From assembly GCF_004353825.1 (NCBI RefSeq), contig NZ_SMNA01000005.1, positions 186,001 to 250,000 of the forward strand: 64,000 bases of DNA. The letters run 5' to 3'. This document shows positions 41,269 to 58,684 of the stretch, in pieces. Each line of letters begins with the position of its first letter. Positions within the stretch are counted from its first letter, which is position 1. A program made the translations under genes and the position numbers. The notes under the pieces were generated by a model. The model had not been told where the DNA came from. It saw only the letters and a program-made list of their open reading frames with translations, and ran no database searches. Source of the stretch: Occultella glacieicola (GTDB lineage: Bacteria; Actinomycetota; Actinomycetes; Actinomycetales; Beutenbergiaceae).

Positions 41269-41278
41269 CGCAGACCTC

Positions 41279-42538
41279 TCACTCCGACCAGTCGACGATC
41301 GCTGCCTGCGGGATCGGCACGACGCATTTGCCGCCCCACTCCTTGATGTAGGCCAGTTGGGCCACGATCTCGTCCTTGAGGTTCCACGGCAGGATCAGGA
41401 CGTAATCGGGCTTCGTCTCGGCGATCCGGCCCGGCTCGTGGATCGGGATGTGCGTACCCGGCGTGTAGCGGCCGTGCTTGTAGGGGTTGCGGTCGACTGT
41501 GTAATCGAGGAAGTCCGGGCCGATCCCGCAGTAGTTGAGCAGGGTGTTCCCCTTGCCGGGGGCGCCGTAGCCGACCACCTGTGCCCCCTGGCGCTTGACG
41601 CCGATGAGGAACTCGAGGAGTTTGCGCTTGGTCTCGCGGACCTGCTCGGCGAACAGTTCGTAGGTCTCGGGCCGCTCCAGCCCGGCATCCAGTTCACGTT
41701 GCCGCAGGTCGAGGAGACGCTCGCTCAGCGCGGGCGCGTCGGGTCCGGCGTGGGTGGCGTGGATCCGCAGCGATCCGCCGTGGGTCCAGAGCTCTTCGAC
41801 GTCGTGGATCACCAGGCCGTGCGCGGCGAAGATCCGCTCGGAGGTCACCAACGAGAAGTAGGAGAAGTGCTCGTGGTAGATGGTGTCGAACTGGTTCTCC
41901 TCGATCAGCCGCAGCAGGTGCGGGAACTCGATGGTGATCAGCCCGCCGGGGGCGAGGAGGAGCTTCATTCCCGCCACGAACGTGTTGAGATCCGGCACCT
42001 GCGCGAGGACGTTGTTGCCCGCGATCAGGTCCGCCCTGGTGCCCTCAGCCACCAGACGCCGGGCCAGTTCTTCGTCGAAGAACTCCACCAGGGTCGGCAC
42101 GTTGCGTTCGTCCACCGCGACCTTGGCGACGTTCGCGGCCGGCTCGATGCCGAGGACCGGCACGTCCGCCTGCACGAAGTACTGGAGGAGATATCCGTCG
42201 TTGCTGGCGAGTTCGACGACCAGACTGTCCGCGCCCAGGTTCCGCTCGGCGATCATGGCCTCGACGTAGGTACGCGCGTGCTCCAGCCAGGCATCGGAGT
42301 AGGAGGAGAAGTACGCGTACTCGGTGAAGATGTCCTCCCGGGACACGTACTCCTGGAGCTGGACCAGGAAGCACTCGTCGCACACCCACGTGTGCAGCGG
42401 GTAGAACGGCTCCATCGCGTTCACCTGGTCAGCCGGTACGAAACTCTCGCACAGCGGGGACATGCCCAGGTCGGCGAAGGTGCGGGTCAGCGTGGCCCCG
42501 CAGAAGCGGCACGGGCCGCCGGTCAGTTCATCGGACAT
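41279..42538 (-). CDS. NDP-sugar C-methyltransferase (Zn-binding, Methyltransf_13/14 type)
   Basis: CRFC...C..C, ELASNDG, FDTIYHEH and GYGAPGKGNTLLN motifs. Confidence 0.9.
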   Translation of the reverse strand: MSDELTGGPCRFCGATLTRTFADLGMSPLCESFVPADQVNAMEPFYPLHTWVCDECFLVQLQEYVSREDIFTEYAYFSSYSDAWLEHARTYVEAMIAERNLGADSLVVELASNDGYLLQYFVQADVPVLGIEPAANVAKVAVDERNVPTLVEFFDEELARRLVAEGTRADLIAGNNVLAQVPDLNTFVAGMKLLLAPGGLITIEFPHLLRLIEENQFDTIYHEHFSYFSLVTSERIFAAHGLVIHDVEELWTHGGSLRIHATHAGPDAPALSERLLDLRQRELDAGLERPETYELFAEQVRETKRKLLEFLIGVKRQGAQVVGYGAPGKGNTLLNYCGIGPDFLDYTVDRNPYKHGRYTPGTHIPIHEPGRIAETKPDYVLILPWNLKDEIVAQLAYIKEWGGKCVVPIPQAAIVDWSE

Positions 42539-42551
42539 TCGTGGCTCCGGA

Positions 42552-43736
42552 TCAGACGGTCTGGACGTTGGCGTCGACACCGAGGTCTATGAGCGTCTGC
42601 CCGATCTCGGTGGCGTAGTACGGGTTCATGACCAGGACGGTTCCCGGCGGGTCGGACACGAGGGCGTCCGGCGCCACCACGGCCTGCCCGGTCCCGGCGA
42701 GGTAGGTGCCCTGCTTGCGGGGGTTGACGTCGACCACCCGATCGACGGCGGTGGTCACCTCGAGCACGTTGAAGAACCCGACGGCTTTGGCGCCGGCTCC
42801 CCACGCGACCACCGGTTCTTCGGCTGCGGCGAGGCGCTCCAACAACTCGGTCCACGCCGTCACCCGTTCCCGGGCGCGGTCGGCGAAGGCTTGGATGTCC
42901 GCCAGGACCTCTGGCGCGGGCCGCGCCGGCGACGGCCGCGCCGGCACCGACGTCGGCCGCGCCTCGACGGAGAGGAATTGGCCGTCGTAGGACTCCCGCA
43001 GATCCAGGATCTCGAAGCCTGCGGACTCCACCGCCGTGCGCAGCGAGGACGCGAGGAAGTAGGACACGTGCTCGTAGATGAGGTCGCCGATGGACAGCCG
43101 CCGAAGCGCGAGGAGACCGTTCGGGACCTCGAGGTAGAGCACCGTGTCCGGCCGGTCGCCGATACCCTCGCGCAAGGAGCGCAGCATCCCAGCCGGGTCG
43201 TCGACGTGTTCCAGCACGTGACGGCAGATCACCAAGTCCGCCTTAGTATCGACGTGCTCACGTGAGAAGTACTCGTTCACCACGCGCACCCGCTCCGGCA
43301 GGGGCTCTGCGTGCTCCGCGTCGTAACTCGGGTCGAAGCCCATGCCCCGGTTCTCACCCAGGTCACAGATGAGGCCGAGGAAGTGACCGCTTCCGCTGCC
43401 GATCTCGACCACGTCGGCGTCCCGGACGTCGTAGGTGTCGATGAGCCGCCGCGCAAGGTCGCGCTCGTAGCTCTGGAACACCGCCGAGAAGTGCAGGGCG
43501 TTGTCGTAACTGTGCCCGTAGGCGTTCAGGCTCGCATCGAAGCCGGTGTTGTAGACGAAGGCGCACTCCGGGCAGTAGCCGAGGTCCAGGTCCCCACGGG
43601 GGCAGTCGACCGCCTCCTGGCGGCTGGGCCAGAGGATCCCGACGTGGGTCGGGACGCCCGCCTGCGCATAGAACGGGCGGAGTTCCGCCGTGTCGCACAC
43701 CGGGCAGCGCGCGCCCGAGTTCCCCGTTGCTGTCAC
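42552..43736 (-). CDS. C-methyltransferase-like SAM-dependent methyltransferase
   Basis: CPVC..CPEC, EIGSGSG, RHVLEH, YEHVSYF, WGAGAK and VDVNPRKQG motifs. Confidence 0.85.
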   Translation of the reverse strand: MTATGNSGARCPVCDTAELRPFYAQAGVPTHVGILWPSRQEAVDCPRGDLDLGYCPECAFVYNTGFDASLNAYGHSYDNALHFSAVFQSYERDLARRLIDTYDVRDADVVEIGSGSGHFLGLICDLGENRGMGFDPSYDAEHAEPLPERVRVVNEYFSREHVDTKADLVICRHVLEHVDDPAGMLRSLREGIGDRPDTVLYLEVPNGLLALRRLSIGDLIYEHVSYFLASSLRTAVESAGFEILDLRESYDGQFLSVEARPTSVPARPSPARPAPEVLADIQAFADRARERVTAWTELLERLAAAEEPVVAWGAGAKAVGFFNVLEVTTAVDRVVDVNPRKQGTYLAGTGQAVVAPDALVSDPPGTVLVMNPYYATEIGQTLIDLGVDANVQTV

Positions 43737-43875
43737 TCTGGAGACACTAGTGAAGGAGCCCTTCGGCCGTTGGGCAAATGACGGGCCCCTCTGGGTGAAC
43801 TGCCGCCGTCATCGGGTGTCACCTTGATCTCACCCCGGGTGAGGTAGGGCGTACCTTTGGCCGTCGCGGTTTCTC

Positions 43876-45513
43876 TCATCGGACGTGCCGCCCACGGCTT
43901 TCCACGGGGATCTCCTCGGACTCGATCCCCGAATCAGGCTGACGTCCTTTCCCACTGCCGTCATGGGTGCTCTGCGCGCGGCCGTCCGCGTCCGCGCCCG
44001 CCCGGACGAAGTGCTGGGGACGAGCAGCGACCCATGCCGCCGCGATCCGCTTCCGGAAGTTCGCGCCCACTGGCGTCGAGACAAACTTGTCCCCGGGAAC
44101 GGCAAGTTGTATTGCATTGGTTGGAGAGGTGCCGTCGAGACGCCACAGGGCACCGATGGCACCCATGAAGATGCAGACGACACCGACGAACGTCGCGAAA
44201 GAGAACGAGTCAAAGGTCCCGCTCGCCATCAGGGCCGCGGGCATCGTCACGGCAAGTGCCTGGCCCAGGTGCCGGGTCTCCTGATTCTTGCCGCGGAGCC
44301 GAATGCTTCGCCCCATCAGATACGGCACCAAGAAGAACAGAACCAACCCGATCACTCCTATGACTCCACCTGCGAGGAGGGTCATGTAGATCTGGTTGTC
44401 CAGCAGGATGTACTCCTCTGGCGTCACCATCCCCGCGCCGCGGCCGAACACCGGACGCAACGACCAGAGGTCCATGACGTAACCGGTGCGAGCAATCCGG
44501 TCCGTCACGCTCGTGTCGTTCTCAGCGTTGGTGAAGAGGGACTTGATCGTGCCGAGGACGCCGCGGTTCACCAGGTGGAAGACTGCGGTCGCCATGATGC
44601 CAATGACGAGGGCGTTGTAGCGCTGTCGCCACGGCCAGATCAGGGCAAGCAAACCCATGGTGACGAGCACCGTAAGGATCGCCGATCGCGAGATTGAGAG
44701 CGGGATCCCCATCGCGACCAGCCCAGCCCCGATCCAGCGCCATACGCGCGTTCGGCCAGGTGGCGAGAATAGGGCGAAATGGAGCGCTACCGGAAGAACC
44801 AGTGCGAGAACGACCCCGAACTCGATGTAGTGGTTGGCCGTCGAGGCCACCCTCGGGAAGCCACCGTCGCCGCGTGCACTGATCCCGATCAGTTCGGCAT
44901 TAGCGTGCAGGCCCGGGATCTTGATGTACTGCGTGATATCGATCACGCCAGCGAACTGCAAGGCGCCGATGACGGACATAACCGCTGCCAATGCGATGAC
45001 CACTTGGAGGAGTCTGTCGAGTTCGCGGCGCGTGCGGACGCCGTCCGCGGTGACGAGGGCGACACCCGCGATGGACGCGGTGAAGATCAGCCACCGGTCT
45101 GCGCTACTCGCCTCGCCCGCAGTGGGGAGCCGGTCGAATCCGATCACGTTGCCCAGCAATTGCAGCCCGACGTACATACCGATCACCCAACGAATCGGTT
45201 GCCGACCGTCCGGGAGGTGATGAGATCGGATCGCGGAAAGGACCCAGAGGAATGCCAACATGATCCCGATTGCGACGGATGGTCGTCCGACGGCGCCGAG
45301 ACCACCGATCACGAGACGGGCCGGGATCAGGAACTGCAGACACAGGAACAGCACCAGGAGCCCGAGGGTGGTCAGCGTCCAGCGATGGATCAGTGCAGGA
45401 ATCCATTCCTCCCGGACTCGCTTGTACCCATCCGGAACTCTGAGAAGGATGGGTCGCCATGCCTCTTGCTCTGATGAGTTCGCCCGTACCGCCGCACCGC
45501 GGTGGAAGGTCAT
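43876..45513 (-). CDS. O-antigen ligase / Wzy polymerase family membrane protein
   Basis: Many TM helices; RVAST..H.IEFG, SISRSA, FGRGAG and LDNQIY motifs. Confidence 0.8.
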   Translation of the reverse strand: MTFHRGAAVRANSSEQEAWRPILLRVPDGYKRVREEWIPALIHRWTLTTLGLLVLFLCLQFLIPARLVIGGLGAVGRPSVAIGIMLAFLWVLSAIRSHHLPDGRQPIRWVIGMYVGLQLLGNVIGFDRLPTAGEASSADRWLIFTASIAGVALVTADGVRTRRELDRLLQVVIALAAVMSVIGALQFAGVIDITQYIKIPGLHANAELIGISARGDGGFPRVASTANHYIEFGVVLALVLPVALHFALFSPPGRTRVWRWIGAGLVAMGIPLSISRSAILTVLVTMGLLALIWPWRQRYNALVIGIMATAVFHLVNRGVLGTIKSLFTNAENDTSVTDRIARTGYVMDLWSLRPVFGRGAGMVTPEEYILLDNQIYMTLLAGGVIGVIGLVLFFLVPYLMGRSIRLRGKNQETRHLGQALAVTMPAALMASGTFDSFSFATFVGVVCIFMGAIGALWRLDGTSPTNAIQLAVPGDKFVSTPVGANFRKRIAAAWVAARPQHFVRAGADADGRAQSTHDGSGKGRQPDSGIESEEIPVESRGRHVR

Positions 45514-45525
45514 CGCCGTGAGCCG

Positions 45526-46362
45526 TCAGCGAGGTCTGGACGAGCCGGCGACCATCTCGGCTCGCCTACCGGAACTATTGATCATGGGTGACTCACTTTG
45601 GTTCGCGTCATCCTGAACCGGCGGCGTCCCGTCGTTCCGGCTCCCGAACAGCATGTCCACGTGCTCGCCTCGACCCTCGTCCGGGGCGAGGTCATCGGGC
45701 CGACCATCGTCCGGATCGAGCCCGGGCTCGACAGCCTCCGATTCCGACGCCGCGCGACGCTCCTGACGATGCGCTCGTGCCCGCTTGATGAGTCCGATGA
45801 GGTCGTCGAACAGGACCGCGATGAGCAACGAGAGTGCGGCTCCGAGGACACCGACGATCGCCATGTTCCGGGTCTTTCCATCAGCGACGACGGCCGTCAC
45901 AGCTGGTTCCTGGAGCACATCGAGTCCGTACTGGGTGGCGGGTGGCAGTCCCGCGTTCGTCTGCCGTGTAGTGAGTTCTTCACGCGCGAGCTCGAAGACC
46001 ATCTCGCCCGTGGCGACTCCAGCCTCTGGCGTGTCCGCGCGCACTTCGAAGTTCAAGACAGTACTGCGAGTCGTCGGAGCAACGGTGTACGTGGGAACGA
46101 GGCCCGCCGCTGCAACCTCAGCTTGCGTCTCCGTGCCGTTCAGGACGATTCCGAGGACCGAGTTCGCGTCGTCCAATCCGCCGTAGGGATTCGCAATCTC
46201 CGCGACGGCCCGGCCCGGCACGACGATCGCCGAAGCTGCAATGTTGTACTCGGGCTGAACCCGCTCTCCGACCGCATACGCGGCCGCGCCACTGAGGGCG
46301 AGCAAGGGCAGCAAGATGTACCAGCGGCGCAGTGCCGCAACTGTGATTGACCAGACGTCCAT
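45526..46362 (-). CDS. Chain-length determinant (Wzz-like) protein
   Basis: MDVWSITVAALRRWY N-terminal TM plus a C-terminal TM flanking an extracellular loop. Confidence 0.65.
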   Translation of the reverse strand: MDVWSITVAALRRWYILLPLLALSGAAAYAVGERVQPEYNIAASAIVVPGRAVAEIANPYGGLDDANSVLGIVLNGTETQAEVAAAGLVPTYTVAPTTRSTVLNFEVRADTPEAGVATGEMVFELAREELTTRQTNAGLPPATQYGLDVLQEPAVTAVVADGKTRNMAIVGVLGAALSLLIAVLFDDLIGLIKRARAHRQERRAASESEAVEPGLDPDDGRPDDLAPDEGRGEHVDMLFGSRNDGTPPVQDDANQSESPMINSSGRRAEMVAGSSRPR

Positions 46363-46508
46363 GACGAGGACTCCCTCCGAGGCTCCACCTGTTGCGAGCC
46401 GTGTCCTTCATGCTATGAGTGGCGTGTCGGGGCCGCAGGCAGACCACAAGCCCAACACATTCCCTACTGCACTTCGCCTCACACTCTCGCGAAGTGTTCA
46501 TATGTCAA

Positions 46509-49487
46509 TTACGGCAACGGCGTCACCGTGACGTTTCCGAACGTTGCGTCTACATGGTGTGCGATGAGAACGACAGATCCGTTCGACACCGTGTCGACAT
46601 CAGTGATGGTCCCTGACCAAGTGGTCGGCTCGGAGGTGCCCTGTTCCCACATCCGCATCGAGTAGGTGGCACCGCCCGAAGGCAGGCCTTCCACGCGTAC
46701 GCGCATCATGTAGGTGTCACCCGGGCTGAAGTCAATCGCGTTGCGCGCACCCCGGACTACCGGGCTGTTGTGGTTGCCGAAGAGTTCCCATCGCGGGCCG
46801 TTCTCGTAGAAGCGGTACCAGGAGTAGGCACCCGCTGGATACCAGCCGTAGGCGAGCGGCTCTCCCTGGACCTGCGTGTGGCCCTGCCATCTGAGCCCGA
46901 TGCCGATCATGGGGTCACCCGAGAGGTACTGCCCTGCGCCTGGCCCGAAGCTGTGCAACGTCATCGGCACCGTCACCTCGTAGTCGGTCCAGGCGGAGTC
47001 ACCGACCGCGAGTATCCGGTCGTAGCCGACCTGCACGGTGCTCACCGAACCGTTGTCGACCCGCCACAGCCCATCGACCGATTGCGCCTGGGTCTGGAGT
47101 GCGGCACTGCCTGACCAGGCGGTCGTGTAGGGCAGGCTCAACGAGCCGTTCTGGATCGTCACATTCACCGTCTCGGTCACCGAGGAACCATTGGTACCGA
47201 GCGCCGTGATCGTGACCACGTTCGACCCCGTGTTGAGATCGGCGTAGGGAATATCGGCGTTGAAATCACCCGGCATAGCGAGGCGACGGTTGTCAGGGCC
47301 GAGGGAGAGAGCCCTCGCCGTTCCGCCGTTGACGCGATAGGTCAGCGAACTCACTCCGTCCGGGTTCGACACGGAACCGACGATGTTGATCCGCGGTTGA
47401 GTCCGGGCTGGGGCTCCGAAGCTCTGGTCCGAGCCGTACCAGATGTCGATCGCGGGGCCAGCCGTCTGCTCCAGCGTCGTGAATGTCCGGTCCTGGGTGA
47501 CAGTGGCGTTGCCGCTGGTGTCGGTGGCGGTGATCCGGTAGTGATACGTCGTCGCGGGCGCCAACCCGGTCAGCGTCGCGGCGTGGGACGTCCCCGACCC
47601 GGACGAACTCGCGGTACTGCCGTAGGACGTGGTCGTCCCGAACGCGACCGCACCCGTGGCCGCCTCGTTCGTCGTCCACGAGACGACCGCAGAGGACGCC
47701 GTCGGTGTCGCACTCACACCACTGACCGCCGGCGCCGTCACATCCGGCTCCGGTTCCGGATCGGGATCGGGATCGGGACCCGGGTCAGCACCGCCGTCCT
47801 CGGGCACGATCGGGTTCGCCCGGTCGAACACGTAGTCCACCAGAGCCGTGTAGGCAGCGGGGTTCGAGCCCGCATTAGCCGCGAACGGCCCCACCGAACC
47901 AACCGTCAACGCCTGCGAGAACGTGCCGATCACCTGCGGCGAGCCACCATCAACGGCCACCGTCATCGTCCACGAGTTGCCGACCCGGCCGACCCCGACC
48001 ACCACCGAATCCGTCGGCTGCACCGCTAACACCTTGTTGAACTTGGTCTTCGACGAACCACTGGTCGTCGCGGCAGCAAACGCCCGGACCACCCCACCGC
48101 TGGCGAACACATCGAACCGCAACCAGTTCGACGCATCCTGCTCCACGATCAAACCCTGATCGTGGTTCGTCGTCACCGGCACCGAATCGAAACCAGCGTC
48201 CACCGCGAAGTCCGTGTTCGAGACCGCCTGCATCACCCGCAGCGACCGGTTCACACCCCACGCATCGTGAGACTCCCCCGCACCCACCGTCAGCGACAGC
48301 TGCGCATCCCCGGTCCCCTCACCGACCAACTCAACCGAACCATCACCCACATGATCCGTCACAGACCACCCAGACCCGAGCACAGAACCCGAGAAATCAT
48401 CAGACGAGAACACAGCGTTCGGGGTGCTGCTCGCGGTCGTGGTGAAGGTGAGATCGGCTGAGCTGCCGGCGTTGCCGCTGGTGTCGGTGGCGGTGATCCG
48501 GTAGTGATACGTCGTCGCGGGCGCCAACCCGGTCAGCGTCGCGGCGTGGGACGTCCCCGACCCGGACGAACTCGCGGTACTGCCGTAGGACGTGGTCGTC
48601 CCGAACGCGACCGCACCCGTGGCCGCCTCGTTCGTCGTCCACGAGACGACCGCAGAGGACGCCGTCGGTGTCGCACTCACACCACTGACCGCCGGCGCCG
48701 TCACATCCGGCTCCGGTTCCGGATCGGGATCGGGATCGGGACCCGGGTCAGCACCGCCGTCCTCGGGCACGATCGGGTTCGCCCGGTCGAACACGTAGTC
48801 CACCAGAGCCGTGTAGGCAGCGGGGTTCGAGCCCGCATTAGCCGCGAACGGCCCCACCGAACCAACCGTCAACGCCTGCGAGAACGTGCCGATCACCTGC
48901 GGCGAGCCACCATCAACGGCCACCGTCATCGTCCACGAGTTGCCGACCCGGCCGACCCCGACCACCACCGAATCCGTCGGCTGCACCGCTAACACCTTGT
49001 TGAACTTGGTCTTCGACGAACCACTGGTCGTCGCGGCAGCAAACGCCCGGACCACCCCACCGCTGGCGAACACATCGAACCGCAACCAGTTCGACGCATC
49101 CTGCTCCACGATCAAACCCTGATCGTGGTTCGTCGTCACCGGCACCGAATCGAAACCAGCGTCCACCGCGAAGTCCGTGTTCGAGACCGCCTGCATCACC
49201 CGCAGCGACCGGTTCACACCCCACGCATCGTGAGACTCCCCCGCACCCACCGTCAGCGACAGCTGCGCATCCCCGGTCCCCTCACCGACCAACTCAACCG
49301 AACCATCACCCACATGATCCGTCACAGACCACCCAGACCCGAGCACAGAACCCGAGAAATCATCAGAGACCAGCACGGAAGCGGCCGTGGCCGGTGGTGC
49401 CATACCGGCGAGCGCCACTGCTGCGGCACCGGCGATCGCCAACGCCATCCGGATTGGGTGGATCGCAGTTGCGTTCTTCGCGTTCAT
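46509..49487 (-). CDS. Secreted protein with duplicated concanavalin-like + FN3-like module
   Basis: Signal peptide; two identical ~300-aa modules (SDDFSG...; WTTNEAATG...GLAPATTYHYRITATD FN3-like). Confidence 0.75.
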   Translation of the reverse strand: MNAKNATAIHPIRMALAIAGAAAVALAGMAPPATAASVLVSDDFSGSVLGSGWSVTDHVGDGSVELVGEGTGDAQLSLTVGAGESHDAWGVNRSLRVMQAVSNTDFAVDAGFDSVPVTTNHDQGLIVEQDASNWLRFDVFASGGVVRAFAAATTSGSSKTKFNKVLAVQPTDSVVVGVGRVGNSWTMTVAVDGGSPQVIGTFSQALTVGSVGPFAANAGSNPAAYTALVDYVFDRANPIVPEDGGADPGPDPDPDPEPEPDVTAPAVSGVSATPTASSAVVSWTTNEAATGAVAFGTTTSYGSTASSSGSGTSHAATLTGLAPATTYHYRITATDTSGNAGSSADLTFTTTASSTPNAVFSSDDFSGSVLGSGWSVTDHVGDGSVELVGEGTGDAQLSLTVGAGESHDAWGVNRSLRVMQAVSNTDFAVDAGFDSVPVTTNHDQGLIVEQDASNWLRFDVFASGGVVRAFAAATTSGSSKTKFNKVLAVQPTDSVVVGVGRVGNSWTMTVAVDGGSPQVIGTFSQALTVGSVGPFAANAGSNPAAYTALVDYVFDRANPIVPEDGGADPGPDPDPDPEPEPDVTAPAVSGVSATPTASSAVVSWTTNEAATGAVAFGTTTSYGSTASSSGSGTSHAATLTGLAPATTYHYRITATDTSGNATVTQDRTFTTLEQTAGPAIDIWYGSDQSFGAPARTQPRINIVGSVSNPDGVSSLTYRVNGGTARALSLGPDNRRLAMPGDFNADIPYADLNTGSNVVTITALGTNGSSVTETVNVTIQNGSLSLPYTTAWSGSAALQTQAQSVDGLWRVDNGSVSTVQVGYDRILAVGDSAWTDYEVTVPMTLHSFGPGAGQYLSGDPMIGIGLRWQGHTQVQGEPLAYGWYPAGAYSWYRFYENGPRWELFGNHNSPVVRGARNAIDFSPGDTYMMRVRVEGLPSGGATYSMRMWEQGTSEPTTWSGTITDVDTVSNGSVVLIAHHVDATFGNVTVTPLP
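47505..49367. repeat. Intragenic 900-bp direct repeat (47505-48404 = 48468-49367, offset 963)
   Basis: Boundaries read from the sequence; alternative-frame ORFs recur identically at +963. Confidence 0.93.
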
Positions 49488-50410
49488 GAGGAGCTTCCGT
49501 CGACTTGGTGGATGAGTTCGGGAGGTGCGAGTAGCCGGCCTCTGACGCGTGCCCTGAGGCGGCCCGCACTGATGCGAGCCCTACGGGTGGAGTAGGCAAC
49601 GGCGAACGCAGCCCCGGAGGCCAGGTCGTCTGGCGTCGACCCCGTGGTGCGTGCGAGAGCTCCCGTCGTTCGACCGAGGAGTCTCAGGCGCACAAACGTC
49701 GGCGCTCTCGTTGCTGCGGGATCGAACCAGCTGGCGATCTCCGAAGCTGTGGTTCGGCCCTGCCGTGATGAACTCTCGTGAATCCGGCGCCGGAACAGTC
49801 GACGATCGACCAGATCAAATCCACCGAGGGCAGCCATCTGGGCCAGGAAAGTAACGTCGGAAGAGATGTAGGAACGAATCAAGTCGGTCCTGGCCATCGG
49901 CTCGCGACGCATCACCCCGAACGCGGCGTTGCACAGGTTGAATCGCCAGGCGAACGCCGCGACTCGGCGCCAGGGCGTTGGGGCCGTGACATCGAGCTTC
50001 TCGTCATAGGCGCGTACGTCTTGGCCGGTGCCATCGATGATGGTCGCCTGCGTGAATGCGAGCACCGCGTCTCGATTGGCGTCGAGGGCGGCAACGCAGG
50101 AACTCACGTACGAGGGGTCGAGGAGATCGTCGTAACCGGCCCACTTGAACAGTTCGGCTCGGGAGTCCCTCACGAGGCGGTTGTAGTTGAACGCCGCCCC
50201 CATGTTCCGGTCGTTCCGGACAAGGCGCACCCGCGAGTCCCGCTCAGCGACCGACTCGACGATGTCGACCGTGCGATCCGTCGAGGCGTTGTCCGAGATC
50301 ACCAGCTCGAAATCGCTGAAGTCCTGAGCCAGCAGGCTCTCCAGCGTCTCCGCGAGGTACACCTCTCCGTTGTAGACGGGCAGGCCGATCGTCAGCCTCG
50401 GGGTACTCAC
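49484..50410 (-). CDS. Glycosyltransferase family 2
   Basis: IGLPVYNGE, ISDNASTD, NMGAAFNYN and WAGYDD motifs. Confidence 0.92.
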   Translation of the reverse strand: MSTPRLTIGLPVYNGEVYLAETLESLLAQDFSDFELVISDNASTDRTVDIVESVAERDSRVRLVRNDRNMGAAFNYNRLVRDSRAELFKWAGYDDLLDPSYVSSCVAALDANRDAVLAFTQATIIDGTGQDVRAYDEKLDVTAPTPWRRVAAFAWRFNLCNAAFGVMRREPMARTDLIRSYISSDVTFLAQMAALGGFDLVDRRLFRRRIHESSSRQGRTTASEIASWFDPAATRAPTFVRLRLLGRTTGALARTTGSTPDDLASGAAFAVAYSTRRARISAGRLRARVRGRLLAPPELIHQVDGSSS

Positions 50411-51585
50411 AGCGCCTCCACGGTCGGGGTGAGGCCGAGGTCGGTCAGTTCCGCACCGATCTCGGTGCGGTAGGCACCGTTCATCACGATCACCAGGGCC
50501 GGCTCGGCGTCGGTCAAGTCCTTCGGTGCGAGCACCCGGTGTCCGGTGCCGGCCATGTACTGGTTCTGCTTGAACGGGTTGATGTCCACGACCCCGTCCA
50601 CCAAGCGGGAGTCCGCGCCGAGTGCGGCGAGGAAGGCCACGCCCTTGGACCCGCCACCCCAGATGACGGTCCGGCCACCGCCGGCGTGCACAGTCCGGAT
50701 CCGGTCGCGCCAGTGATCGACCATCGCCTGGTGTCCGCGGGCGAACCGGGCGGCCGCCTCCGCGAGTTCCGCCGGATCTTCCTCGATCGGGATCGCTGCG
50801 GTCGCGACGCCGCCGACCGCGGGGCGGGCTTCGACGAGCAGGGTCTGGTCGGAGTAGGCACGTTCGATGGCGAGCACGTCGAATCCGGCAGCGCGGAACA
50901 GCCTGCCGACCGAACCGGCGGAGAAGTAGGAACTGTGCTCGTAGTACACGTCCCAGAACGCGACCTCGTCGAGGACGCGCCGCACGTCCGGAACCTCGAA
51001 CAGCAGGACGGTGCGTTCGGGTTCGGTGATCGCGGACCGGATGGCGGCGAGGAACTCACGGACGGGGGCGATGTGCTCGAGGGTGTGCCGACAGACGATG
51101 GCGTCCGCCCGCAGGTCCGGAAGGTCCTGCGGAAAGAGTCCTTGGATCCAGGTCAGGGGTAGGCCTGCCGGGATCCGCGCGGGCTGCACGCCTGGGTCGA
51201 TGCCGATGCCGCTGCCGATGCCGGCTCGCGCCAGCTCGACCAGGAACTCGCCCTTGCCGCAGCCGATCTCGACGACGGTGCCGCCACCCAAGGAGTAGCG
51301 CTCGACCCAGTCGGCGGCGAGGTGGTGGATGAAGGCTTGGAAGGTCGGCGAGAAGCCCTGGGTCTCCTCGTAGTCCTGCGAGTAGGTCATCAGCTCCGGG
51401 TCGTAGCGGCAGTTCCAGATGAGCCCGCAGGCGGGACACAGGGCGAGGGCCAGGGCTCCCTTGGGGAAGTCGACGGCGGCGTCTCGGTCCCCGAGGAGCA
51501 GGCAGCTGTTGACCGGGACGGGTTCACCCACGTGGAAGGGTTCCGGTGCAGCGGCACCGCAGGCGGGGCAGGTGCCGGCGGTCAC
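50407..51585 (-). CDS. C-methyltransferase-like SAM-dependent methyltransferase (paralog of 42552-43736)
   Basis: CPAC..CPAC, EIGCGKG, RHTLEH, YYEHSSYF and WGGGSKG motifs. Confidence 0.85.
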   Translation of the reverse strand: MTAGTCPACGAAAPEPFHVGEPVPVNSCLLLGDRDAAVDFPKGALALALCPACGLIWNCRYDPELMTYSQDYEETQGFSPTFQAFIHHLAADWVERYSLGGGTVVEIGCGKGEFLVELARAGIGSGIGIDPGVQPARIPAGLPLTWIQGLFPQDLPDLRADAIVCRHTLEHIAPVREFLAAIRSAITEPERTVLLFEVPDVRRVLDEVAFWDVYYEHSSYFSAGSVGRLFRAAGFDVLAIERAYSDQTLLVEARPAVGGVATAAIPIEEDPAELAEAAARFARGHQAMVDHWRDRIRTVHAGGGRTVIWGGGSKGVAFLAALGADSRLVDGVVDINPFKQNQYMAGTGHRVLAPKDLTDAEPALVIVMNGAYRTEIGAELTDLGLTPTVEAL

Positions 51586-52889
51586 GGAGCAACCCGTTCG
51601 GCGATGTTATGACTCGGGGTGTCGGCGCCGTGGGCACGTTCCGCGGGTCGCGCACGACCGACGAGACTGTCGAAGACACCCACGTAGGCGCGGGCCTGGA
51701 TCGACCAGGACAACTCGTTCTCGATGCGGCTCCGCCCGAGCCGACCCATCACCACGCGACGCTGTGGGTCGTCGAGCAGCGCCGCGATCTCCGTCGCGGC
51801 ATGTGCCGGGTCGTCACCGGAGACGTACACGGCGGCGTCCTGTGCGCAGCGCCTGGTCTCGCGCAGGTTCGTGGCGACGACCGGGATCTCGTGGGCCATG
51901 TACTCGAGGGTCTTGTTCATCGTGGACCGATGGTTGAACTCGTTCTCGGGGTCGGGTGTGACGCCGAGGTCCGCGGTGGACAGCCAGCGACCCAGTTCCT
52001 CATGGTCCACCCTCCCGGTGAAGGTGACCCAGGGGTCGAGACCGCGGGCGGTCGCGTCCGCCTTCAAGGCCTCGAGGCTGTCGCCGAATCCCAGGAGTGC
52101 GAAGCGGGTGTCCTCGCGGCCGAGGTCGTGGACGTAGTGATCGATGGTCGCGAGAAGTCCGTCGACGCCGTCCTGCGGGCCCATGATGCCCACGTAGCAG
52201 ACCAGGTGTTCCCGTCCGCCGCGAAGTTCGGGATGCGCCCGGCCGCGGCGCATCCGGTCCGCGTCGGGGGTGCTCATCACCACCGCCGTCCGGCGGGCGG
52301 GTACCCGGCCCCGTTGGAGCGCGATGTCGCGGTAGGCGGGGTTCGGTGAGATCACGCGGTCTGCGACCCGGTAGGTCATCGACTCGAGGAACAGCAGCGC
52401 CCGGTGAACGAGTCCACGCTTGCCGAAGCGGGCCTCGTAGACCTCGGGACAGAGATCGTGCTGATCGAAGACGTAGCGACGACTACGGAGCTTCCAGAGG
52501 GCACCTAGCAGCCAATAGGTGTCCGGTGGATTGCAGGCTTGGAGCACGTCGAAGCCGCGGTCCCGGTTCACCTTGAAGGACAGCCTCGCGGTCTGGAGCC
52601 AGCACAGCGCGAACTCGCGGACGTAGCTGACCAGCCCGGAGCTCTCCGGCGGCGCCGCGTAGGAGTACACGTGGATGTCGTCGAGGATGTGACGATCCGG
52701 CTCGCCGGCGGTCTCCTTCGGGCAGATGACGCTCACGTCATAGCCCGCGCGCACCAAGGCGGCGCATTCGGTACGGACCCGGCGGTCGATGCGCAGCGGC
52801 AGGTTCTGAATCACGATGAGCGCACGTGGCCTACGCCCGGCGGCCGCCTCGGCCGTGGCCGGCGTCCGTCCGTTCCGGCGATTCCACAT
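51582..52889 (-). CDS. Glycosyltransferase family 4
   Basis: DRRV..E, ACNPPD, FDQHDLCPE, YVGIMGPQDG and NKTLEYMA motifs. Confidence 0.92.
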   Translation of the reverse strand: MWNRRNGRTPATAEAAAGRRPRALIVIQNLPLRIDRRVRTECAALVRAGYDVSVICPKETAGEPDRHILDDIHVYSYAAPPESSGLVSYVREFALCWLQTARLSFKVNRDRGFDVLQACNPPDTYWLLGALWKLRSRRYVFDQHDLCPEVYEARFGKRGLVHRALLFLESMTYRVADRVISPNPAYRDIALQRGRVPARRTAVVMSTPDADRMRRGRAHPELRGGREHLVCYVGIMGPQDGVDGLLATIDHYVHDLGREDTRFALLGFGDSLEALKADATARGLDPWVTFTGRVDHEELGRWLSTADLGVTPDPENEFNHRSTMNKTLEYMAHEIPVVATNLRETRRCAQDAAVYVSGDDPAHAATEIAALLDDPQRRVVMGRLGRSRIENELSWSIQARAYVGVFDSLVGRARPAERAHGADTPSHNIAERVAP

Positions 52890-53150
52890 CTGTCCGCTCT
52901 CCCGTCGTCGTTGCAGGTGGCGGGGAACTCGCCGATGCGGGTGGTTGCGACCTGACGGTCCGCAACGCCACCTCGCTCGAGCCCCCCGAACGCTGTGCTA
53001 CTCCTGGCAACGTACTGAGGACACCCGGCACCCGGTAGCGGAAGCACGGGTGAGATAGGTGAGGCAAGGGTGAAAACACCCGGCTCTTCTTCCTCACCCC
53101 GGGGTGAGGAGGATGGGAGCCACATCCCACTGACAGCGACCCCATCGGGC

Positions 53151-53993
53151 GTGGATACTCGCGGCGTGGTCTCCATCATCGTTCCGGCGCACAACGAGGA
53201 GCGGTCCTTGCCTCGGCTGTTGGACGCGCTCGACGACCCGCGGTGGGCTCCGGAGGAGGTCATTGTGGTCGCGAACGGCTGCTCGGACCGGACGGCGCAG
53301 GTCGCCCGGGCGCGCGGGGTCACCGTGATCGAGACGCCGATCCCGTCGAAGATCAAGGCGCTCGCGCTCGGGGACGCCAGGGCCACCTCCTTCCCGCGCA
53401 TCTACGTCGACGGTGACGTGGTTCTCGGAGCCGACTCCGCACGAGCGCTGTGTGGCGCTCTCACCGATGGCGTGCAGGCCGCCGGGCCGATCAGGAGCTT
53501 CCCGATGGCCAGGGTGTCGGCACCGGTGCGCTGGTACTACGACGTCTGGCAGCGTCTGGACGGCGTGCGGACCGAACTGTACGGACGCGGGGTGGTCGCG
53601 GTGAGCGAGGTCGGCCACGCCCGGATCCGGGACTGGCCGGAGACCATGTCCGACGACCTGCACCTGGCGATGAGTTTCGCCCCGGACGAGCGCACCGTGG
53701 TAGCGGCCGCCCGCGTCACGATCATGCCGCCGAAGACCTACCGCGACCTGCTGCGCCGGCGGGTTCGCGCCATGACCGGAAACGCGCGGATGGCGGGCAC
53801 ACCCGAGGCACCGGCTGTGCGCAGTGCCGGGGCAAGTCCGGCCGCCATCGGACGGATGGTGGCCGCCGAGCCCCGGCTGCTGCCCGGCGCCGCGGTCTTC
53901 GTCGTCACGGCCGCCATCTCGAAACTCCTCGGCCGCAGAGCCGCCCGACGCGGGGACACCACCTGGCTCCGAGACGAGAGCAGCCGTCGCTGA
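53151..53993 (+). CDS. Glycosyltransferase family 2
   Basis: IVPAHNEE, ANGCSDRTA and YVDGD motifs; start uncertain (53070 or 53151). Confidence 0.85.
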   Translation: MDTRGVVSIIVPAHNEERSLPRLLDALDDPRWAPEEVIVVANGCSDRTAQVARARGVTVIETPIPSKIKALALGDARATSFPRIYVDGDVVLGADSARALCGALTDGVQAAGPIRSFPMARVSAPVRWYYDVWQRLDGVRTELYGRGVVAVSEVGHARIRDWPETMSDDLHLAMSFAPDERTVVAAARVTIMPPKTYRDLLRRRVRAMTGNARMAGTPEAPAVRSAGASPAAIGRMVAAEPRLLPGAAVFVVTAAISKLLGRRAARRGDTTWLRDESSRR

Positions 53994-54275: not shown

Positions 54276-54539
54276 GTGCAGTTGCGTAAAGACGGGGTCA
54301 CCTGGCGCGAGATCGACGGCGAGATGGTCCTCCTCGATCTGAAGACGTCCAAGTACCTCACCACGAACCGGGCGGGCACGACGCTGGTCAAGCTGCTCGC
54401 CGAGGACCGAACCGCCGACGACCTCACCAGTGCCTTGGTCACCGAGTTCGGTATCAGTGCCGACCGAGCGGCCGGCGATGTCGCCGCCTTCGTGGGCTCG
54501 CTCGAGCAGCGAGGGCTGCTTCAGGTCGCTGCTCGCTGA
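54276..54539 (+). CDS. PqqD-family RiPP recognition element (lasso B1/E protein)
   Basis: 87 aa; WREIDGEMVLLDL..SKYLTTN..G..L..LL...L...F...DVAAFV..L...GLL PqqD pattern; GAGGGGAG RBS. Confidence 0.92.
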   Translation: MQLRKDGVTWREIDGEMVLLDLKTSKYLTTNRAGTTLVKLLAEDRTADDLTSALVTEFGISADRAAGDVAAFVGSLEQRGLLQVAAR

Positions 54540-54607
54540 GGCGTTCCAAGTTTCCGGCACATCAGGCCGGGGCCAACCAACGACACCACGTGAGGGGGTG
54601 ACACCAC

Positions 54608-54733
54608 ATGTACGAATCTCCGATGATCCAGGAGGTCGGCTCCGTCCGCGACCTCACCCTGGGCGAAGGCTGGGCCGGGAGTGACGACACGTTCCTGTAC
54701 TTCATCCGGTACGGGACCGACCCGTCCTCCTGA
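54608..54733 (+). CDS. Lasso peptide precursor (41 aa; leader MYESPMIQEVGSVRDLTL, core GEGWAGSDDTFLYFIRYGTDPSS)
   Basis: Manual translation; GAGGGGGTGA RBS; YxxP and GxxxxxT(-2) leader motifs; Gly1 core with Asp8/Asp9; lies between the RRE and cyclase genes. Confidence 0.93.
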   Translation: MYESPMIQEVGSVRDLTLGEGWAGSDDTFLYFIRYGTDPSS

Positions 54734-54741
54734 CCTCGATG

Positions 54742-54783
54742 GGAGCGGGCCCGCTGGCCGATGCCGGTCAGCGGGCCCGCTCC
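54742..54783 (+). terminator. 19-bp stem-loop after the precursor gene
   Basis: GGAGCGGGCCCGCTGGCCG-atgc-CGGTCAGCGGGCCCGCTCC (one G-U pair) followed by TTGCTT. Confidence 0.8.
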
Positions 54784-54837: not shown

Positions 54838-56004
54838 ATGGCGGAAGCACCCCCGATGGAGGGGTACGTCCGATCCGACCCCTTCGAGGTGGCGACGTGC
54901 TGGAAGTACGGCCTGAGCAGGCCGACGCCATTGCCACCGCAGCAACTGTCTCCCCGAGGTGCGTTGGAAGCGGCGATCATGCCTGCGCTGGTCGAGGGTG
55001 CGTGTTATGTCACGTTCTCCGGGGGCCGCGACTCCTCGGCGATCCTCGCGACTGCGACCCACCTGGCTCGGCGGGAGGGCCTACCCGACCCGGTTCCCGT
55101 GACGCGCCTCTACCCGAATGTCCCGGACTCGGACGAGTCCGAGTGGCAACACCTTGTCATCGACCACCTCGGCCTCAGCGAGTGGCTCCGACTGGAGTTC
55201 ACCGACGACGAGACCGATCTGCTCGGCCCCGCGGCCCAGGCGAGCGTGCGACGTCATGGACTGCTCTGGCCACCTGCGGTTCACAGTCACGGCCTCGTCT
55301 ATCAGCACCTCACCGGCGGGGCGATGTTGACCGGAGAGGGTGGCGACGAGGTCCTCGGCGCTCGTAGGGTCACGCCACTCACCTTGCTTCGCCGGCGTCG
55401 CCGCCCGACTCGCGCTCTCCTGCGCGGAGCGGCTCATGCGCTCTCGCCCTCCTCGGTTCGCCGACGTCAGATACGCCGGGAACTGGAGTCGGCGCGGCTC
55501 CAACACTGGCTCCGCCCCGATGCCAAGAACCAACACTTGCGACTGATGGCCGCCGACGAAGCCACCGAGCCGCTGAGTTACGAAGCCGCCACCTGGTGGA
55601 TCACCAGACGTCGCAGCTGGGCGACGATGGCCGCCAATCAGGCCCTGATCGCCGGGACTTACCAGGTCCGCGCATCGAACCCGCTCCTCGACGACGATTT
55701 CATCGCGGCGCTGGCACATGCCGGGGCCACCTGGGGATACAACGGCCGCACCGCGACGATGAAGGCGCTCTTCTCGGACGTGCTGCCGTCGGCGTTGCTC
55801 TCCCGTCGGACCAAGGCCAGCTTCAATCGGGCCTACGCCGGGAGATACACCCGTGAGTTCGCACGGCATTGGGACGGCTCGGGCGTCGACGGTGAGCTCG
55901 TGGACCCGGAGATCCTGCGGGACGTCTGGCTGTCGGATGAACCGACGATGTCGACCGCGATGCTTCTCCACCAGGCCTGGCTCGCTGCCCCGGTGACACA
56001 GTGA
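54838..56004 (+). CDS. Lasso peptide cyclase (Asn-synthetase-like C protein), short form
   Basis: FSGGRDSS PP-loop, TGEGGDE, NPLLD and RRTKASF motifs; operon context; start uncertain (54826-54856). Confidence 0.85.
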   Translation: MAEAPPMEGYVRSDPFEVATCWKYGLSRPTPLPPQQLSPRGALEAAIMPALVEGACYVTFSGGRDSSAILATATHLARREGLPDPVPVTRLYPNVPDSDESEWQHLVIDHLGLSEWLRLEFTDDETDLLGPAAQASVRRHGLLWPPAVHSHGLVYQHLTGGAMLTGEGGDEVLGARRVTPLTLLRRRRRPTRALLRGAAHALSPSSVRRRQIRRELESARLQHWLRPDAKNQHLRLMAADEATEPLSYEAATWWITRRRSWATMAANQALIAGTYQVRASNPLLDDDFIAALAHAGATWGYNGRTATMKALFSDVLPSALLSRRTKASFNRAYAGRYTREFARHWDGSGVDGELVDPEILRDVWLSDEPTMSTAMLLHQAWLAAPVTQ

Positions 56005-56453
56005 GCGTCCGTCGGCCCCCGTTCGGCGAATGGCCGTGGATCGTCGCGGCTCTCGCCCTCGCAGTCGTGGCCGAACTTGGGCTGCGCACCGCGGGCCTGC
56101 CGCGCCTTGCCCGCATGTTCGGGACCCCGCTTCGGACCGACGACTCCACGCCCGCGCAGCCGGATCACCCGTCCGGCGCGCCGGTCCTGGATGACCGGGC
56201 ACGACGCCAGGTGCGGTCGAGTCGCAGGGTGATGCGCCACTGGCCATTCGGTGACACGTGTCTGCGTCAGGCACTTATCAGCGGTGCTCTTCTGCGTCGG
56301 CTCGGGCCCGAGTTGCTCGTCGGAGTCGCCAAGATCGACGGCCAGGTCCGCGCGCACGCCTGGCTCGAGATCAATGGCGGCATCCTCGACCCGCTGGGCG
56401 CGGCAGCGTCCTACACACCGCTGCTCTCACCCGATGCCTTGGACGTGAAATGA
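56001..56453 (+). CDS. Lasso peptide leader peptidase (B2, transglutaminase-like)
   Basis: TCLRQAL (catalytic Cys), LLVGV and AHAWLE motifs; GTGA coupling to the cyclase. Confidence 0.92.
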   Translation: MSVRRPPFGEWPWIVAALALAVVAELGLRTAGLPRLARMFGTPLRTDDSTPAQPDHPSGAPVLDDRARRQVRSSRRVMRHWPFGDTCLRQALISGALLRRLGPELLVGVAKIDGQVRAHAWLEINGGILDPLGAAASYTPLLSPDALDVK

Positions 56454-57415
56454 ACACGACCAAGCTGTACGGCCTGAACCTCGACTCCGAGATCGCTCTG
56501 CACCAGACGCGGCCTGCCGACGGTCCGACCGACGTGACGATCCGGGTCGGGGCACCCATGGGGACCACCGAGGCCGCACCCCCTGGTCGGATGCTCCTGC
56601 ATCTGGACGGCGACAAGCAGTACTACTCCGCGACCGAGACCGACTCCGGTTACCTGCTCCGGTTCTACCGGACCTGCGACTTCGTGATCGATCCCGGACT
56701 CACCACCGTGACCGCCCATCTGGTGCATGGCGCCGACCCCGAACGGGTGGGGGTTCTCGCCGCCGGAACCATGCTCTCCTTCCTGCTGGCCCTGCGTCGA
56801 CGTCCGGTGCTGCACGCCAGCGCGGTGCAGGTCGGGGAGGCCGCCCTCGCGTTCGTGGGCCGTTCCGGCATGGGCAAGTCGACGATGGCGACGTTGATGG
56901 CCGCTGACGGCGCCCGGCTGATCACCGACGACGTGCTCCACCTCGATCTGGACACGGTGCCGCCGCGGTGTCATCTCGGGGCGACGGAACTGCGTCTGCG
57001 CAAGGCGGCCGGCGACCTCGCGGCACGGTTCGCCGTCGCCCCCGGGCGTCGCCTGACCGGCGACGACCGGGACGCGCTCGCGATCCGGTCGGCCGACACG
57101 GATCTGTTGCCTCTGCACGCGATCGTGATCCCCGCCCCGGACCACTCGGAGCAGGATCGCGAGCCGGAGTTCCTTCGGCTCTCCCCGCGGGACGCCCTGC
57201 TGCACCTGCTGATGTTTCCCCGGATCGTCGGCTGGCAGGATCCCGCCGCCGTCGACCTCCAGTTCCAGCACCTCAGCGACGTCGTCGAGAAGGTTCCGGT
57301 GTACGTCGCGCGCCTTCCGTGGGGACCGCCGTTCCCGCCGGCCATCGCGGCGCAGGTGCTGACCGCCGTCGGCCTGGATCAGGCGGTCACGGCCGATTCC
57401 ACCGCATCGAGGTAG
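56450..57415 (+). CDS. HPr kinase-like lasso peptide kinase
   Basis: YGLNLDSEIAL start; LHASAV, GRSGMGKST Walker A and LITDD motifs; ATGA coupling to B2. Confidence 0.85.
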   Translation: MNTTKLYGLNLDSEIALHQTRPADGPTDVTIRVGAPMGTTEAAPPGRMLLHLDGDKQYYSATETDSGYLLRFYRTCDFVIDPGLTTVTAHLVHGADPERVGVLAAGTMLSFLLALRRRPVLHASAVQVGEAALAFVGRSGMGKSTMATLMAADGARLITDDVLHLDLDTVPPRCHLGATELRLRKAAGDLAARFAVAPGRRLTGDDRDALAIRSADTDLLPLHAIVIPAPDHSEQDREPEFLRLSPRDALLHLLMFPRIVGWQDPAAVDLQFQHLSDVVEKVPVYVARLPWGPPFPPAIAAQVLTAVGLDQAVTADSTASR

Positions 57416-58581
57416 ACATTGAGGGCGTCCTCGCCCGCCTTCACCCGAGCGGACCGTGCGATCGGAGGAGTCCGGCGAGTCCGTTCCCGCACGCCGACCG
57501 CGGCGTTGCGCCCAGCCGCGACGAGGGTCCGTGCCGCGCCCGGCTGCGCGGCCCGAGCCACCAACCGTGCCAGGCCCGGCTCCTGACGCGCCCGCGGAAC
57601 CGGCGCGAACCGGTCGACCGTCGCCGTCAGGACGCCGAAGGGCGCGGACAGCCCCAGCCGGTGGTCCAGGTCCTGCGGTAGCGGCGTGCCGAGCACCCGC
57701 TTCGCCCGGGCGAGGACCAGGGCGACGTGCGGCTCTGCGCGCCAGGCCCGGGCGCGAGTGGCCACTTCGTCCCAGTCCTCGATCTGGGCGGCCAGCCGGT
57801 CGGCATCCACGAGCAGGAGGAGTCTGTTCGCACCGGTCAGCGCCGCGTGCAGGCAGACGTGCACCAGGGCATCCGCCGGCGACAGCGCCCAGGCGCGGTT
57901 CAGACCCAGCATCACCGGGGTGCGACGGCCGAGGAGCTCAGGGGTCGGCACCGCGAACCGCGCACGCCGGACCGCCATGTTGATCATGGACCAGTGCAGG
58001 TCCATCAGCAGCCCTGACGGGCCGACCCAGTGCATCTCCCCCGGGGTCTGCGGGTTGCGGAGCATGTCATCGAAGTCGGCGATCTTCCAGCCGGCGTCCA
58101 GGAGTCGGTGCGCGACCTCCCGCAGGTCCGTGGGATCGACGAGCGTATCGATGTCGTGGTACGTGCGCAGCCCTTGCGCCGGATGAGCCGTCTCGGACAG
58201 GAACGGGCCCTTGAACGTCACCCAAGGGATGTCGTCGAGGACGGCGCCGAACTGCTCGAGCATGATGGTGGCTCGGATGTGGATGCCCATGGCGTGGTCC
58301 CGGTCGACGCGCAGGAGCGCCGCGTCCTCCGGAGACCGATCCCGGAGCGCGAGGTGCACGAGCGGTGCGACCCGGTGGTATCGGGCGGCCTGGACCAGGT
58401 CCGACCGCGCTTCCGACCCCGGCGCGGTCAGGTTGCGTTCCCCTCGGGCACTGTGGACGAGCAGTTCGGAGACCGCTTGCTGCGTCCGTGAAGCCCTTCC
58501 CGGGATGGCACGAACCACTGGAACTCCCGGACGTCGTTGGGCGATCCCCTCAGGGACAGCGATCGGTGTCACTGCGCGCAT
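57379..58581 (-). CDS. Nucleotidyltransferase (NTP_transf_5-like)
   Basis: FKGPFL...R.YHDIDTLV, DLHW and LVHVCLHA motifs; converges on and overlaps the kinase gene; start uncertain. Confidence 0.82.
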   Translation of the reverse strand: MRAVTPIAVPEGIAQRRPGVPVVRAIPGRASRTQQAVSELLVHSARGERNLTAPGSEARSDLVQAARYHRVAPLVHLALRDRSPEDAALLRVDRDHAMGIHIRATIMLEQFGAVLDDIPWVTFKGPFLSETAHPAQGLRTYHDIDTLVDPTDLREVAHRLLDAGWKIADFDDMLRNPQTPGEMHWVGPSGLLMDLHWSMINMAVRRARFAVPTPELLGRRTPVMLGLNRAWALSPADALVHVCLHAALTGANRLLLLVDADRLAAQIEDWDEVATRARAWRAEPHVALVLARAKRVLGTPLPQDLDHRLGLSAPFGVLTATVDRFAPVPRARQEPGLARLVARAAQPGAARTLVAAGRNAAVGVRERTRRTPPIARSARVKAGEDALNVYLDAVESAVTA

Positions 58582-58684
58582 CGGCAGGTGACAGCAGGCT
58601 AGCGGCGGCCAATCCGGCACGCGGCGAAATGGCCTGCGAAGTCAGGTCCGGTCCGAGACCGGCGTGGCACCGGTCGCGGGCGGA

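Follow-up and report, generated by a model that had tools for sequence, protein, structure and literature searches.

The window analysed here, a stretch of 64,000 nucleotides of the actinomycete Occultella glacieicola (NCBI RefSeq assembly GCF_004353825.1, contig NZ_SMNA01000005.1, positions 186,001 to 250,000 of the forward strand), contains a lasso peptide cluster of six intact genes, with B1-A-C-B2-K in this order on one strand and N on the other (Table 1). The sole precursor of this cluster, A, is a short open reading frame between the RRE gene and the cyclase gene. Second copies of the six genes were not found in the genome by tblastn. Among other genomes of the family, 9 of 35 carry the kinase; among 25 genomes belonging to the order's other families, it was found in none. 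Of 401 genomes of the phylum searched with the cyclase profile, 9 gave a match, the genome under study included.

Table 1. Features of the lasso peptide locus and its surroundings, numbered from the first nucleotide of the window.
Feature	Position	Strand	Size and evidence
ABC transporter, candidate exporter D	36864..38729	+	621 aa; co-location of orthologues
Polysaccharide and sugar-nucleotide block	38787..53993		context between exporter and core cluster
B1, RRE/PqqD leader-binding protein	54276..54539	+	87 aa; PF05402 56.2 bits > 23.4
Shine-Dalgarno-like purine run	54592-54598	+	9 nt before ATG; read from sequence
A, lasso precursor	54608..54733	+	41 codons; translation and NF033521 match
Leader of precursor A	54608-54661	+	18 aa
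Core of precursor A	54662-54730	+	23 aa; Gly1, Asp8, Asp9, Ser23
Perfect 20-bp hairpin	54741-54784	+	3' of precursor stop; -48.8 kcal/mol
C, compact lasso-type cyclase	54838..56004	+	388 aa; PF00733; PP-loop SGGRDS at 61-66
B2, leader peptidase	56001..56453	+	150 aa; NF033537 64.6 bits > 33
K, HPr-kinase-like peptide kinase	56450..57415	+	321 aa; PF07475 weak, E 5e-5
N, PF14907 nucleotidyltransferase, PsmN-like	57379..58620	-	PF14907 114.7 bits > 31.2

The leader-binding protein B1 stays below the cut-offs of two further models, with 57.3 bits against NF033530 (Streptomyces-type, cut-off 70) and 38.9 bits against the Bacillus-type model. The motif residues of the peptidase B2 (Cys87, His119, Asp130) are intact. 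In K the residues His122, Lys143, Asp160 and Asp161 are invariant among six aligned sequences, and the corresponding motifs were found in 36, 39 and 37 of 40 full-length homologues; a His-Lys-Asp-Asp set is described as catalytic for PadeK and ThcoK (PMC9266682, accessible part). N is convergent with K, its true start may lie downstream of 58620, and it carries a D-x-D pair common to all 19 full-length homologues. Directly upstream of N and on the same strand lies a PF13578 methyltransferase gene (58685-59716, minus strand), which is probably not a core lasso gene, because it occurs in this place only in two relatives (loci L012 and L013). The minus-strand genes that follow the cluster (59732-64000) we take to encode dihydroxyacetone-kinase-like subunits, a HAD hydrolase, a class II aldolase and a sugar-binding regulator. 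Other arrangements were seen among the relatives: L020 (6441-9338) has tandem precursor-cyclase pairs with one common B1/B2/K/N set, and in genome G220 (L106, L114) two cyclases lie 5.6 kb apart.

An earlier note, made from the letters of the window, had proposed a 41-aa lasso precursor at this place, with a YxxP motif and Thr at -2, cleavage after Leu18 and a Cys-free core of class II, and these proposals are supported. Translation gives an 18-residue leader with Y-x-x-P at residues 2-5 and Thr at -2, and the peptide scores 31.1 bits against the NCBIfam model NF033521 (lasso_leader_L3), over its cut-off of 19. The core has no Cys, contains F11, Y13, F14, R16 and Y17, ends in D-P-S-S and offers, besides Ser23, the hydroxyl residues Ser7, Thr10, Thr19 and Ser22. 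By its leader, acid, partner genes and Cys-free core, the precursor is predicted to belong to the class II lasso peptides, and both this class and a cleavage after Leu18 would fit the cluster and the homologues. A pattern covering the leader only had six matches in the 5.34-Mb genome, and solely precursor A has Asp or Glu at core positions 7-9. In the relatives L012 and L013 the precursor peptide is identical; the 3 base differences in 126 are all synonymous, DNA identity across the surrounding 1.9 kb is 84-85%, and the ORF is, judging by these substitutions, under purifying selection. A conserved small ORF near the cyclase, which the note had expected in related loci, was indeed present: in 57 of 72 cases the distance between precursor and cyclase is at most 600 bp, and a precursor was found in the locus in all nine kinase-bearing genomes of the family. 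What did not last is the label "unannotated", which is true of the ORF track only, as the databases NCBI, UniRef and nr contain the exact peptide and NCBI names two of its homologues "lasso RiPP family leader peptide-containing protein". Among named records, those of Occultella gossypii and O. aeris are the closest (cyclase identity 85-86%). That the 41-codon ORF is a real lasso precursor is virtually certain.

Many homologous precursors are also preceded by purine runs similar to the one before A. The hairpin after the stop codon (z -6.15) was matched by none of 200 shuffles, and 38 of 62 homologous precursors have a z of -3 or lower within the next 70 nt (mononucleotide shuffles). The hairpin probably protects the message of the precursor and dampens read-through; it lacks a T run and is not counted as a terminator.

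For a comparison of cores, the leader-only pattern was run on 101 loci (L012 to L115 minus three duplicates). It gave 73 matches, one of which was not leader-like and was dropped, leaving 72 matches with 62 distinct cores. Because the pattern covers the leader only, neither the ring acceptor nor the tail was selected for; the cores are mutually related and non-independent, and for this reason counts are given without P values. An acid occurs at position 9 in 44 of the 62 cores, at position 8 in 26, at position 7 in 8 and at position 10 in 14; at least one of positions 7-9 is acidic in 51 cores and none is in 11. Both 8 and 9 are acidic in 23 cores, 9 without 8 in 21, and 8 without 9 in 3. Between Asp8 and Asp9, which the earlier note had put forward side by side, these counts favour Asp9 and make Asp8 less likely, and a Gly1-Asp9 ring is, on this comparison, quite likely. 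Asp9 is favoured and not proven, because Asp8 and Asp9 are both invariant in the closest set (22 cores sharing the ring motif x-x-G-x-x-G-x-D-D, Asp8 thus by definition), so that the case rests on the distant relatives.

Two further kinds of core were observed in this collection. Asp10 occurs in 12 of the 62 cores, several of which have no Asp at 8 or 9 (L016:3634, L017:14284, L018:14313 and L019:14338, these four also with Asp7, and those of L065, L075, L077, L093, L103 and L104); a 10-residue ring on Asp10 would exceed the known 7-9. Cys is found in 11 of the 62 cores; some of these have two Cys residues, lack an acid at 7-9 and end in Ser-Ser. The loci concerned (L072, L074, L075, L076, L093, L098, L103, L104, L106, L107) often hold a second, different precursor, and it is possible that the Cys-bearing cores give products of the disulfide class or with a non-standard ring.

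At the other end of the core, Ser is the last residue in 49 of the 62 cores (another residue in 13), and its frequency elsewhere in the cores is 6.7%. Terminal Ser was found in 19 of 19 cores with cyclases of 50% identity or more, and in all of the closest 22, which range from 18 to 28 residues in length. It also ends 28 of 32 cores with a kinase seen and 21 of 30 without, a contrast that tells little, many loci being truncated. In this closest set the penultimate residue is Ser in two cores and position 7 in five. A kinase acting on the tail, as earlier suggested, would fit the cluster and the homologues, with the His-Lys-Asp-Asp set kept. Of the one or two acceptor serines then considered, the terminal one is preferred and Ser22 becomes unlikely: the Ser-Ser end is taken as incidental because a penultimate Ser is so rare, Ser23 alone is likely the kinase site, and we hold with high confidence that it is phosphorylated. 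Among the bulky residues that had been listed as candidate plugs, those around Y17-G18 seem the likely ones, since an aromatic-Gly pair is present in the tail of all 22 closest cores (by eye) and the shortest cores stop two residues after it; F11 is probably too near a 9-residue ring for this role.

The unusual part of the cluster is its predicted cyclase, which consists of the synthetase domain only (no PF13537 or PF13522 at E <= 0.01) and is about 200 residues shorter than a standard cyclase. It scores 11.8 bits against NF033535 (cut-off 525), which places it outside that family, and 28.6 bits against TIGR01536 (cut-off 267), matching only model positions 257-517, with the glutaminase domain absent. 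Standard cyclases (NF033535, a model of 668 positions, and NF033561, of 561 positions) have the Asn-synthetase domain and PP-loop in common with it, and their N-terminal domain is missing here. As reference we used a 618-aa standard cyclase (G085), which passes NF033535 and has PF13537/PF13522 at residues 10-143; it came from a survey of 401 genomes with NF033535, used only for model length and this reference, as two candidates were scored per genome and most were ordinary asparagine synthases. In an hhalign comparison of the cyclase family with this reference (probability 91, 308 columns, 22% identity), residue 39 of the cyclase pairs with residue 218, leaving about 180 N-terminal residues of the standard enzyme without counterpart. 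The AlphaFold2 model of the cyclase (pLDDT 94.5, pTM 0.92) matches the synthetase domains of AsnB, beta-lactam and carbapenam synthetases with Z 12-18, rmsd 3.9-4.8 and 245-333 aligned residues. The top fold match is TsnB9 (Z 18.1, rmsd 4.8, 333 aligned), and the synthetase half of E. coli AsnB (residues 192-503) gives Z 13.0, rmsd 3.9 and 256 aligned; no lasso cyclase was among the matches listed in the searches of solved structures. A complex prediction of cyclase, precursor, ATP and Mg scored 0.02 and weighs in neither direction.

The short form is shared by a large family. In a search that covered 214-679 aa, the best 120 of 1191 homologues range from 341 to 416 aa; as only these best 120 were listed, longer relatives may rank lower. 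A profile search of 1.84 billion representatives gave 935 clusters at E <= 1e-30; the best 150 of these are 236-442 aa long, none reaching 450 aa, and S-G-G-x-D-S is kept in 148 of them. A screen of 8000 candidates between 729 and 2080 aa for longer or fused forms gave one partial match, which is weak evidence. The ATP-binding motifs and the ring Asp are kept across hundreds of family members. The idea of a split cyclase was set aside, as the space that separates A from C is too small for another gene. A stand-alone PF13537 gene was found neither in the cluster nor in the genome, whose two PF13537 matches we take, from their motifs, to resemble PurF and GlmS. A separate gene for the missing domain was likewise not found among the 93 of 131 flanking ORFs scanned in 20 long loci, where the sole match was of GlmS type. 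The loss of an N-terminal domain is not unprecedented in kind, because McjC is reported to have no glutaminase domain and to work so (a review, PMC4979651, accessible part); beyond this remark no description of the compact family was found in the literature searched, although the major cyclase surveys may include it. That C cyclises the precursor is very likely, and it is probable that the 388-aa enzyme does so as a stand-alone compact cyclase.

No transporter gene adjoins the core genes, and the candidate exporter, an ABC protein, lies 15.5 kb upstream. In 18 of the 29 loci that are 10 kb or longer, an orthologue of it (36-63% identity) is found no more than 4 kb from the cyclase, and of the 11 loci without a nearby orthologue, 8 are from the window's own family. 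All eight cluster-bearing genomes of the family have the gene (76-93% identity): in seven it is separated from the kinase by 11-47 kb, and in the eighth it is on a different contig. In 2 of 2 family genomes without the kinase it was not found at E <= 1e-100. From this co-location, the ABC protein is likely the displaced exporter of the cluster. Exporter and core genes bracket a polysaccharide block of about 15 kb with genes for GT2 and GT4 glycosyltransferases, a Wzy-type protein, C-methyltransferases, an epimerase, an NTP transferase and a deacetylase. In 20 long loci hand-chosen from the 29 (L028 by tblastn), a glycosyltransferase, Wzy or priming sugar transferase is nearby in 13, other sugar-pathway genes only in 3 and none in 4; these are raw counts that come from the 93 of 131 flanking ORFs scanned. 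The block also encodes a secreted-looking protein of 992 aa (46509-49487, minus strand) in which a segment of about 320 aa (DUF1349 and Fn3 units) is duplicated almost exactly. Between a flippase gene (29249-31078) and the ABC transporter, an FdhD-family gene lies within 33317-36782. The long ORF of this interval, presumably molybdopterin-oxidoreductase-like, interrupts the polysaccharide locus together with the FdhD gene.

Compared by description, the cluster has seven gene types in common with the pseudomycoidin cluster of Bacillus pseudomycoides, psmC-A-K-B1-B2-N-D (PMC6993621), and the likeness extends to Asp at position 9, the terminal Ser, the lack of Cys, the N-type D-x-D pair and the split B1/B2. 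The Occultella cluster differs in its actinomycete host, gene order, opposite strand of N and remote exporter, and also in its Tyr leader, Gly1, aromatic-rich core and short cyclase. In the paeninodin group, PadeK, ThcoK and SyanK likewise belong to systems with a terminal-Ser precursor beside a His-Lys-Asp-Asp kinase (PMC9266682, available sections), and the pade cluster, unlike that of Occultella, has no N gene (PMC6993621). Paeninodins are described as restricted to Bacillota, with an RRE clade of their own that favours Trp (accessible part of PMC13381572), whereas here the neighbours are actinomycetes and the leader has Tyr. By analogy, the cluster would work like the pseudomycoidin system and stand outside the strict paeninodin clade. 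The bsf cluster of Bradymonas sediminis likewise has A, B1, B2, C, D, K and N, but BsfK acts on the ring serine Ser3 and its precursor BsfA has a C-terminal Asp and an Ile at -2, in place of the terminal Ser and Thr found here (PMC10368454, accessible part). The LPP systems also combine K, N, an RRE and an MsbA-like transporter in capsular polysaccharide loci; they differ in having no cyclase, a signal-peptidase-type protease and a modified Ser3 (available text of PMC13381572), whereas the Occultella cluster has a cyclase and a cysteine-type B2. With an HPr-kinase-like gene, a conserved terminal Ser, a PsmN-like N and, by co-location, an ABC exporter, it agrees with the lasso peptides phosphorylated on a terminal Ser.

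Taken together, we favour with moderate confidence a lasso peptide of class II bearing a Gly1-Asp9 ring, phosphorylated on Ser23 and possibly with a sugar on the phosphate. The order of steps is drawn by analogy with paeninodin and pseudomycoidin, and we infer the chemical steps, threading, export and role alike. B1 would bind the Y-x-x-P leader, K would put one or more phosphates on Ser23 of the linear precursor and B2 would cut after Leu18. C would then adenylate Asp9 with ATP and join it to the amine of Gly1 around a pre-folded tail, for which the aromatic and bulky residues around Y17-G18 are the likely lock. Attachment of another group to the phosphate would require N, and export of the product would fall to the ABC transporter. 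On this scheme the calculated neutral monoisotopic mass would be 2540.11 for the linear core, 2522.10 once cyclised, 2602.07 with a phosphate, 2764.12 with phosphate and one hexose, and 2926.17 with phosphate and two hexoses. Phosphorylation, and possibly glycosylation, are expected because the gene set matches that of pseudomycoidin, in which PsmK and PsmN yield phospho- and hexose-phospho-Ser with one or two hexoses (PMC6993621). This analogy has its limits, as in vitro activity of PsmN is not on record and the related LppN had no effect in a heterologous host (PMC13381572, accessible part). A further decoration by N is considered somewhat likely. The product likely acts at the cell surface or in the matrix, with the polysaccharide of the flanking genes, a role suggested by the conserved polysaccharide context; it is likely no antibiotic, and neither pseudomycoidin nor paeninodin showed antibacterial activity (PMC6993621).

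Several other readings start from the same genes. The pathway might be the same with an 8-residue ring on Asp8, Asp9 serving as a recognition residue. Rings of 7, 8 and 9 residues are all known (PMC13352647), and Asp8 is as constant as Asp9 in the closest cores; the excess of cores with an acid at 9 and not 8 over the reverse, and the use of position 9 in paeninodin and pseudomycoidin (PMC6993621), make this reading unlikely. The site of the phosphate could also be another one, namely the ring residue Ser7, Ser22 or two serines at once. Here the five and two occurrences of Ser7 and a penultimate Ser, against a terminal Ser in every one of the 22 closest cores, weigh against the alternative, as does the fact that multiple phosphates stack on one Ser in known cases (PMC9266682, available sections). 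BsfK and LppK each modify Ser3 of their cores (PMC10368454 and PMC13381572, accessible parts) and the core of A does offer further hydroxyl residues, yet we consider phosphorylation at these sites very unlikely.

A different doubt concerns the ring itself: the short enzyme might close it without threading, or might need a missing partner, so that the product would be a branched-cyclic or linear phosphopeptide. The N-terminal residues without counterpart point in this direction, wild-type pseudomycoidin was isolated unthreaded, as a branched cycle (PMC6993621), and linear phosphopeptides with K and N and without a cyclase exist (PMC13381572, available text). This is nevertheless improbable, given the conservation of ATP motifs and ring Asp in hundreds of relatives, the several large residues in the tail, the lack of a stand-alone amidotransferase-like gene in the cluster and the example of McjC (PMC4979651, accessible part). 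Finally, the ORF could be fortuitous, or a relic without function, next to polysaccharide genes, and a consensus promoter scan gave one weak match only, which overlaps the start codon and is not credible. The synonymous-only divergence, the intact partner genes and the presence of the precursor in every kinase-bearing relative render this hardly conceivable, and the threaded, Ser23-phosphorylated peptide remains the preferred reading.

Lasso peptides phosphorylated on a terminal Ser are an already described kind, and the peptide would be one more member, an uncharacterised actinobacterial variant. According to a paper of 2023 (PMC10368454, accessible part), the phosphorylated lasso peptides then known have B2 proteins from Bacillota and one alphaproteobacterium, to which it adds its own deltaproteobacterial case. 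A phosphorylated lasso peptide from an actinomycete was not found in the literature searched, mostly without subscription papers, and neither were publications joining lasso peptides and Occultella; the names Occultella, Nocardioides and Jiangella are absent from the text of six supplementary files of PMC13381572. The glycosylated davasins of Streptomyces rely on a different enzyme (PMC11912497, accessible part). The link with polysaccharide loci has been published, its role stated as unknown, for paeninodin and LPP clusters in Bacilli (PMC13381572, available text); the present cluster extends it to a second phylum. It also provides a test case in a cultured, soil-type actinomycete group for the PsmN-type reaction and the role of phosphorylated lasso peptides, both of which are stated to be unknown in the literature.

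According to a review of 2026, lasso cyclases are without a crystal structure (PMC13352647). A confidently modelled single-domain cyclase of 388 aa with hundreds of variants would be a good target for the mechanism of knot-tying, and lets one ask what the usual N-terminal domain does. A bolder proposal, which we regard as rather improbable, is that the compact cyclases are the smallest self-sufficient lasso enzymes, with about 900 clusters missed by the standard model, and that N links the phosphoserine to sugars of the locus, the lasso being exported in glycan-linked form. If true, the glycan-linked reading would mean that phosphorylated lasso peptides have a structural function at the cell surface or in the matrix and would explain their polysaccharide-locus setting in both Bacillota and Actinomycetota.

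Two minor observations concern other short enzymes. The compact cyclase gene of locus L109 (G402:C16:80980-82119) contains a single TAG in frame and may be decaying. Feature scores of 0.96-0.97 were reached by clusters from archaea, mostly Nitrososphaerota, that are 380-408 aa long and have no domains other than those of PF00733 type; they may represent either compact cyclases or stand-alone synthetases unrelated to these.
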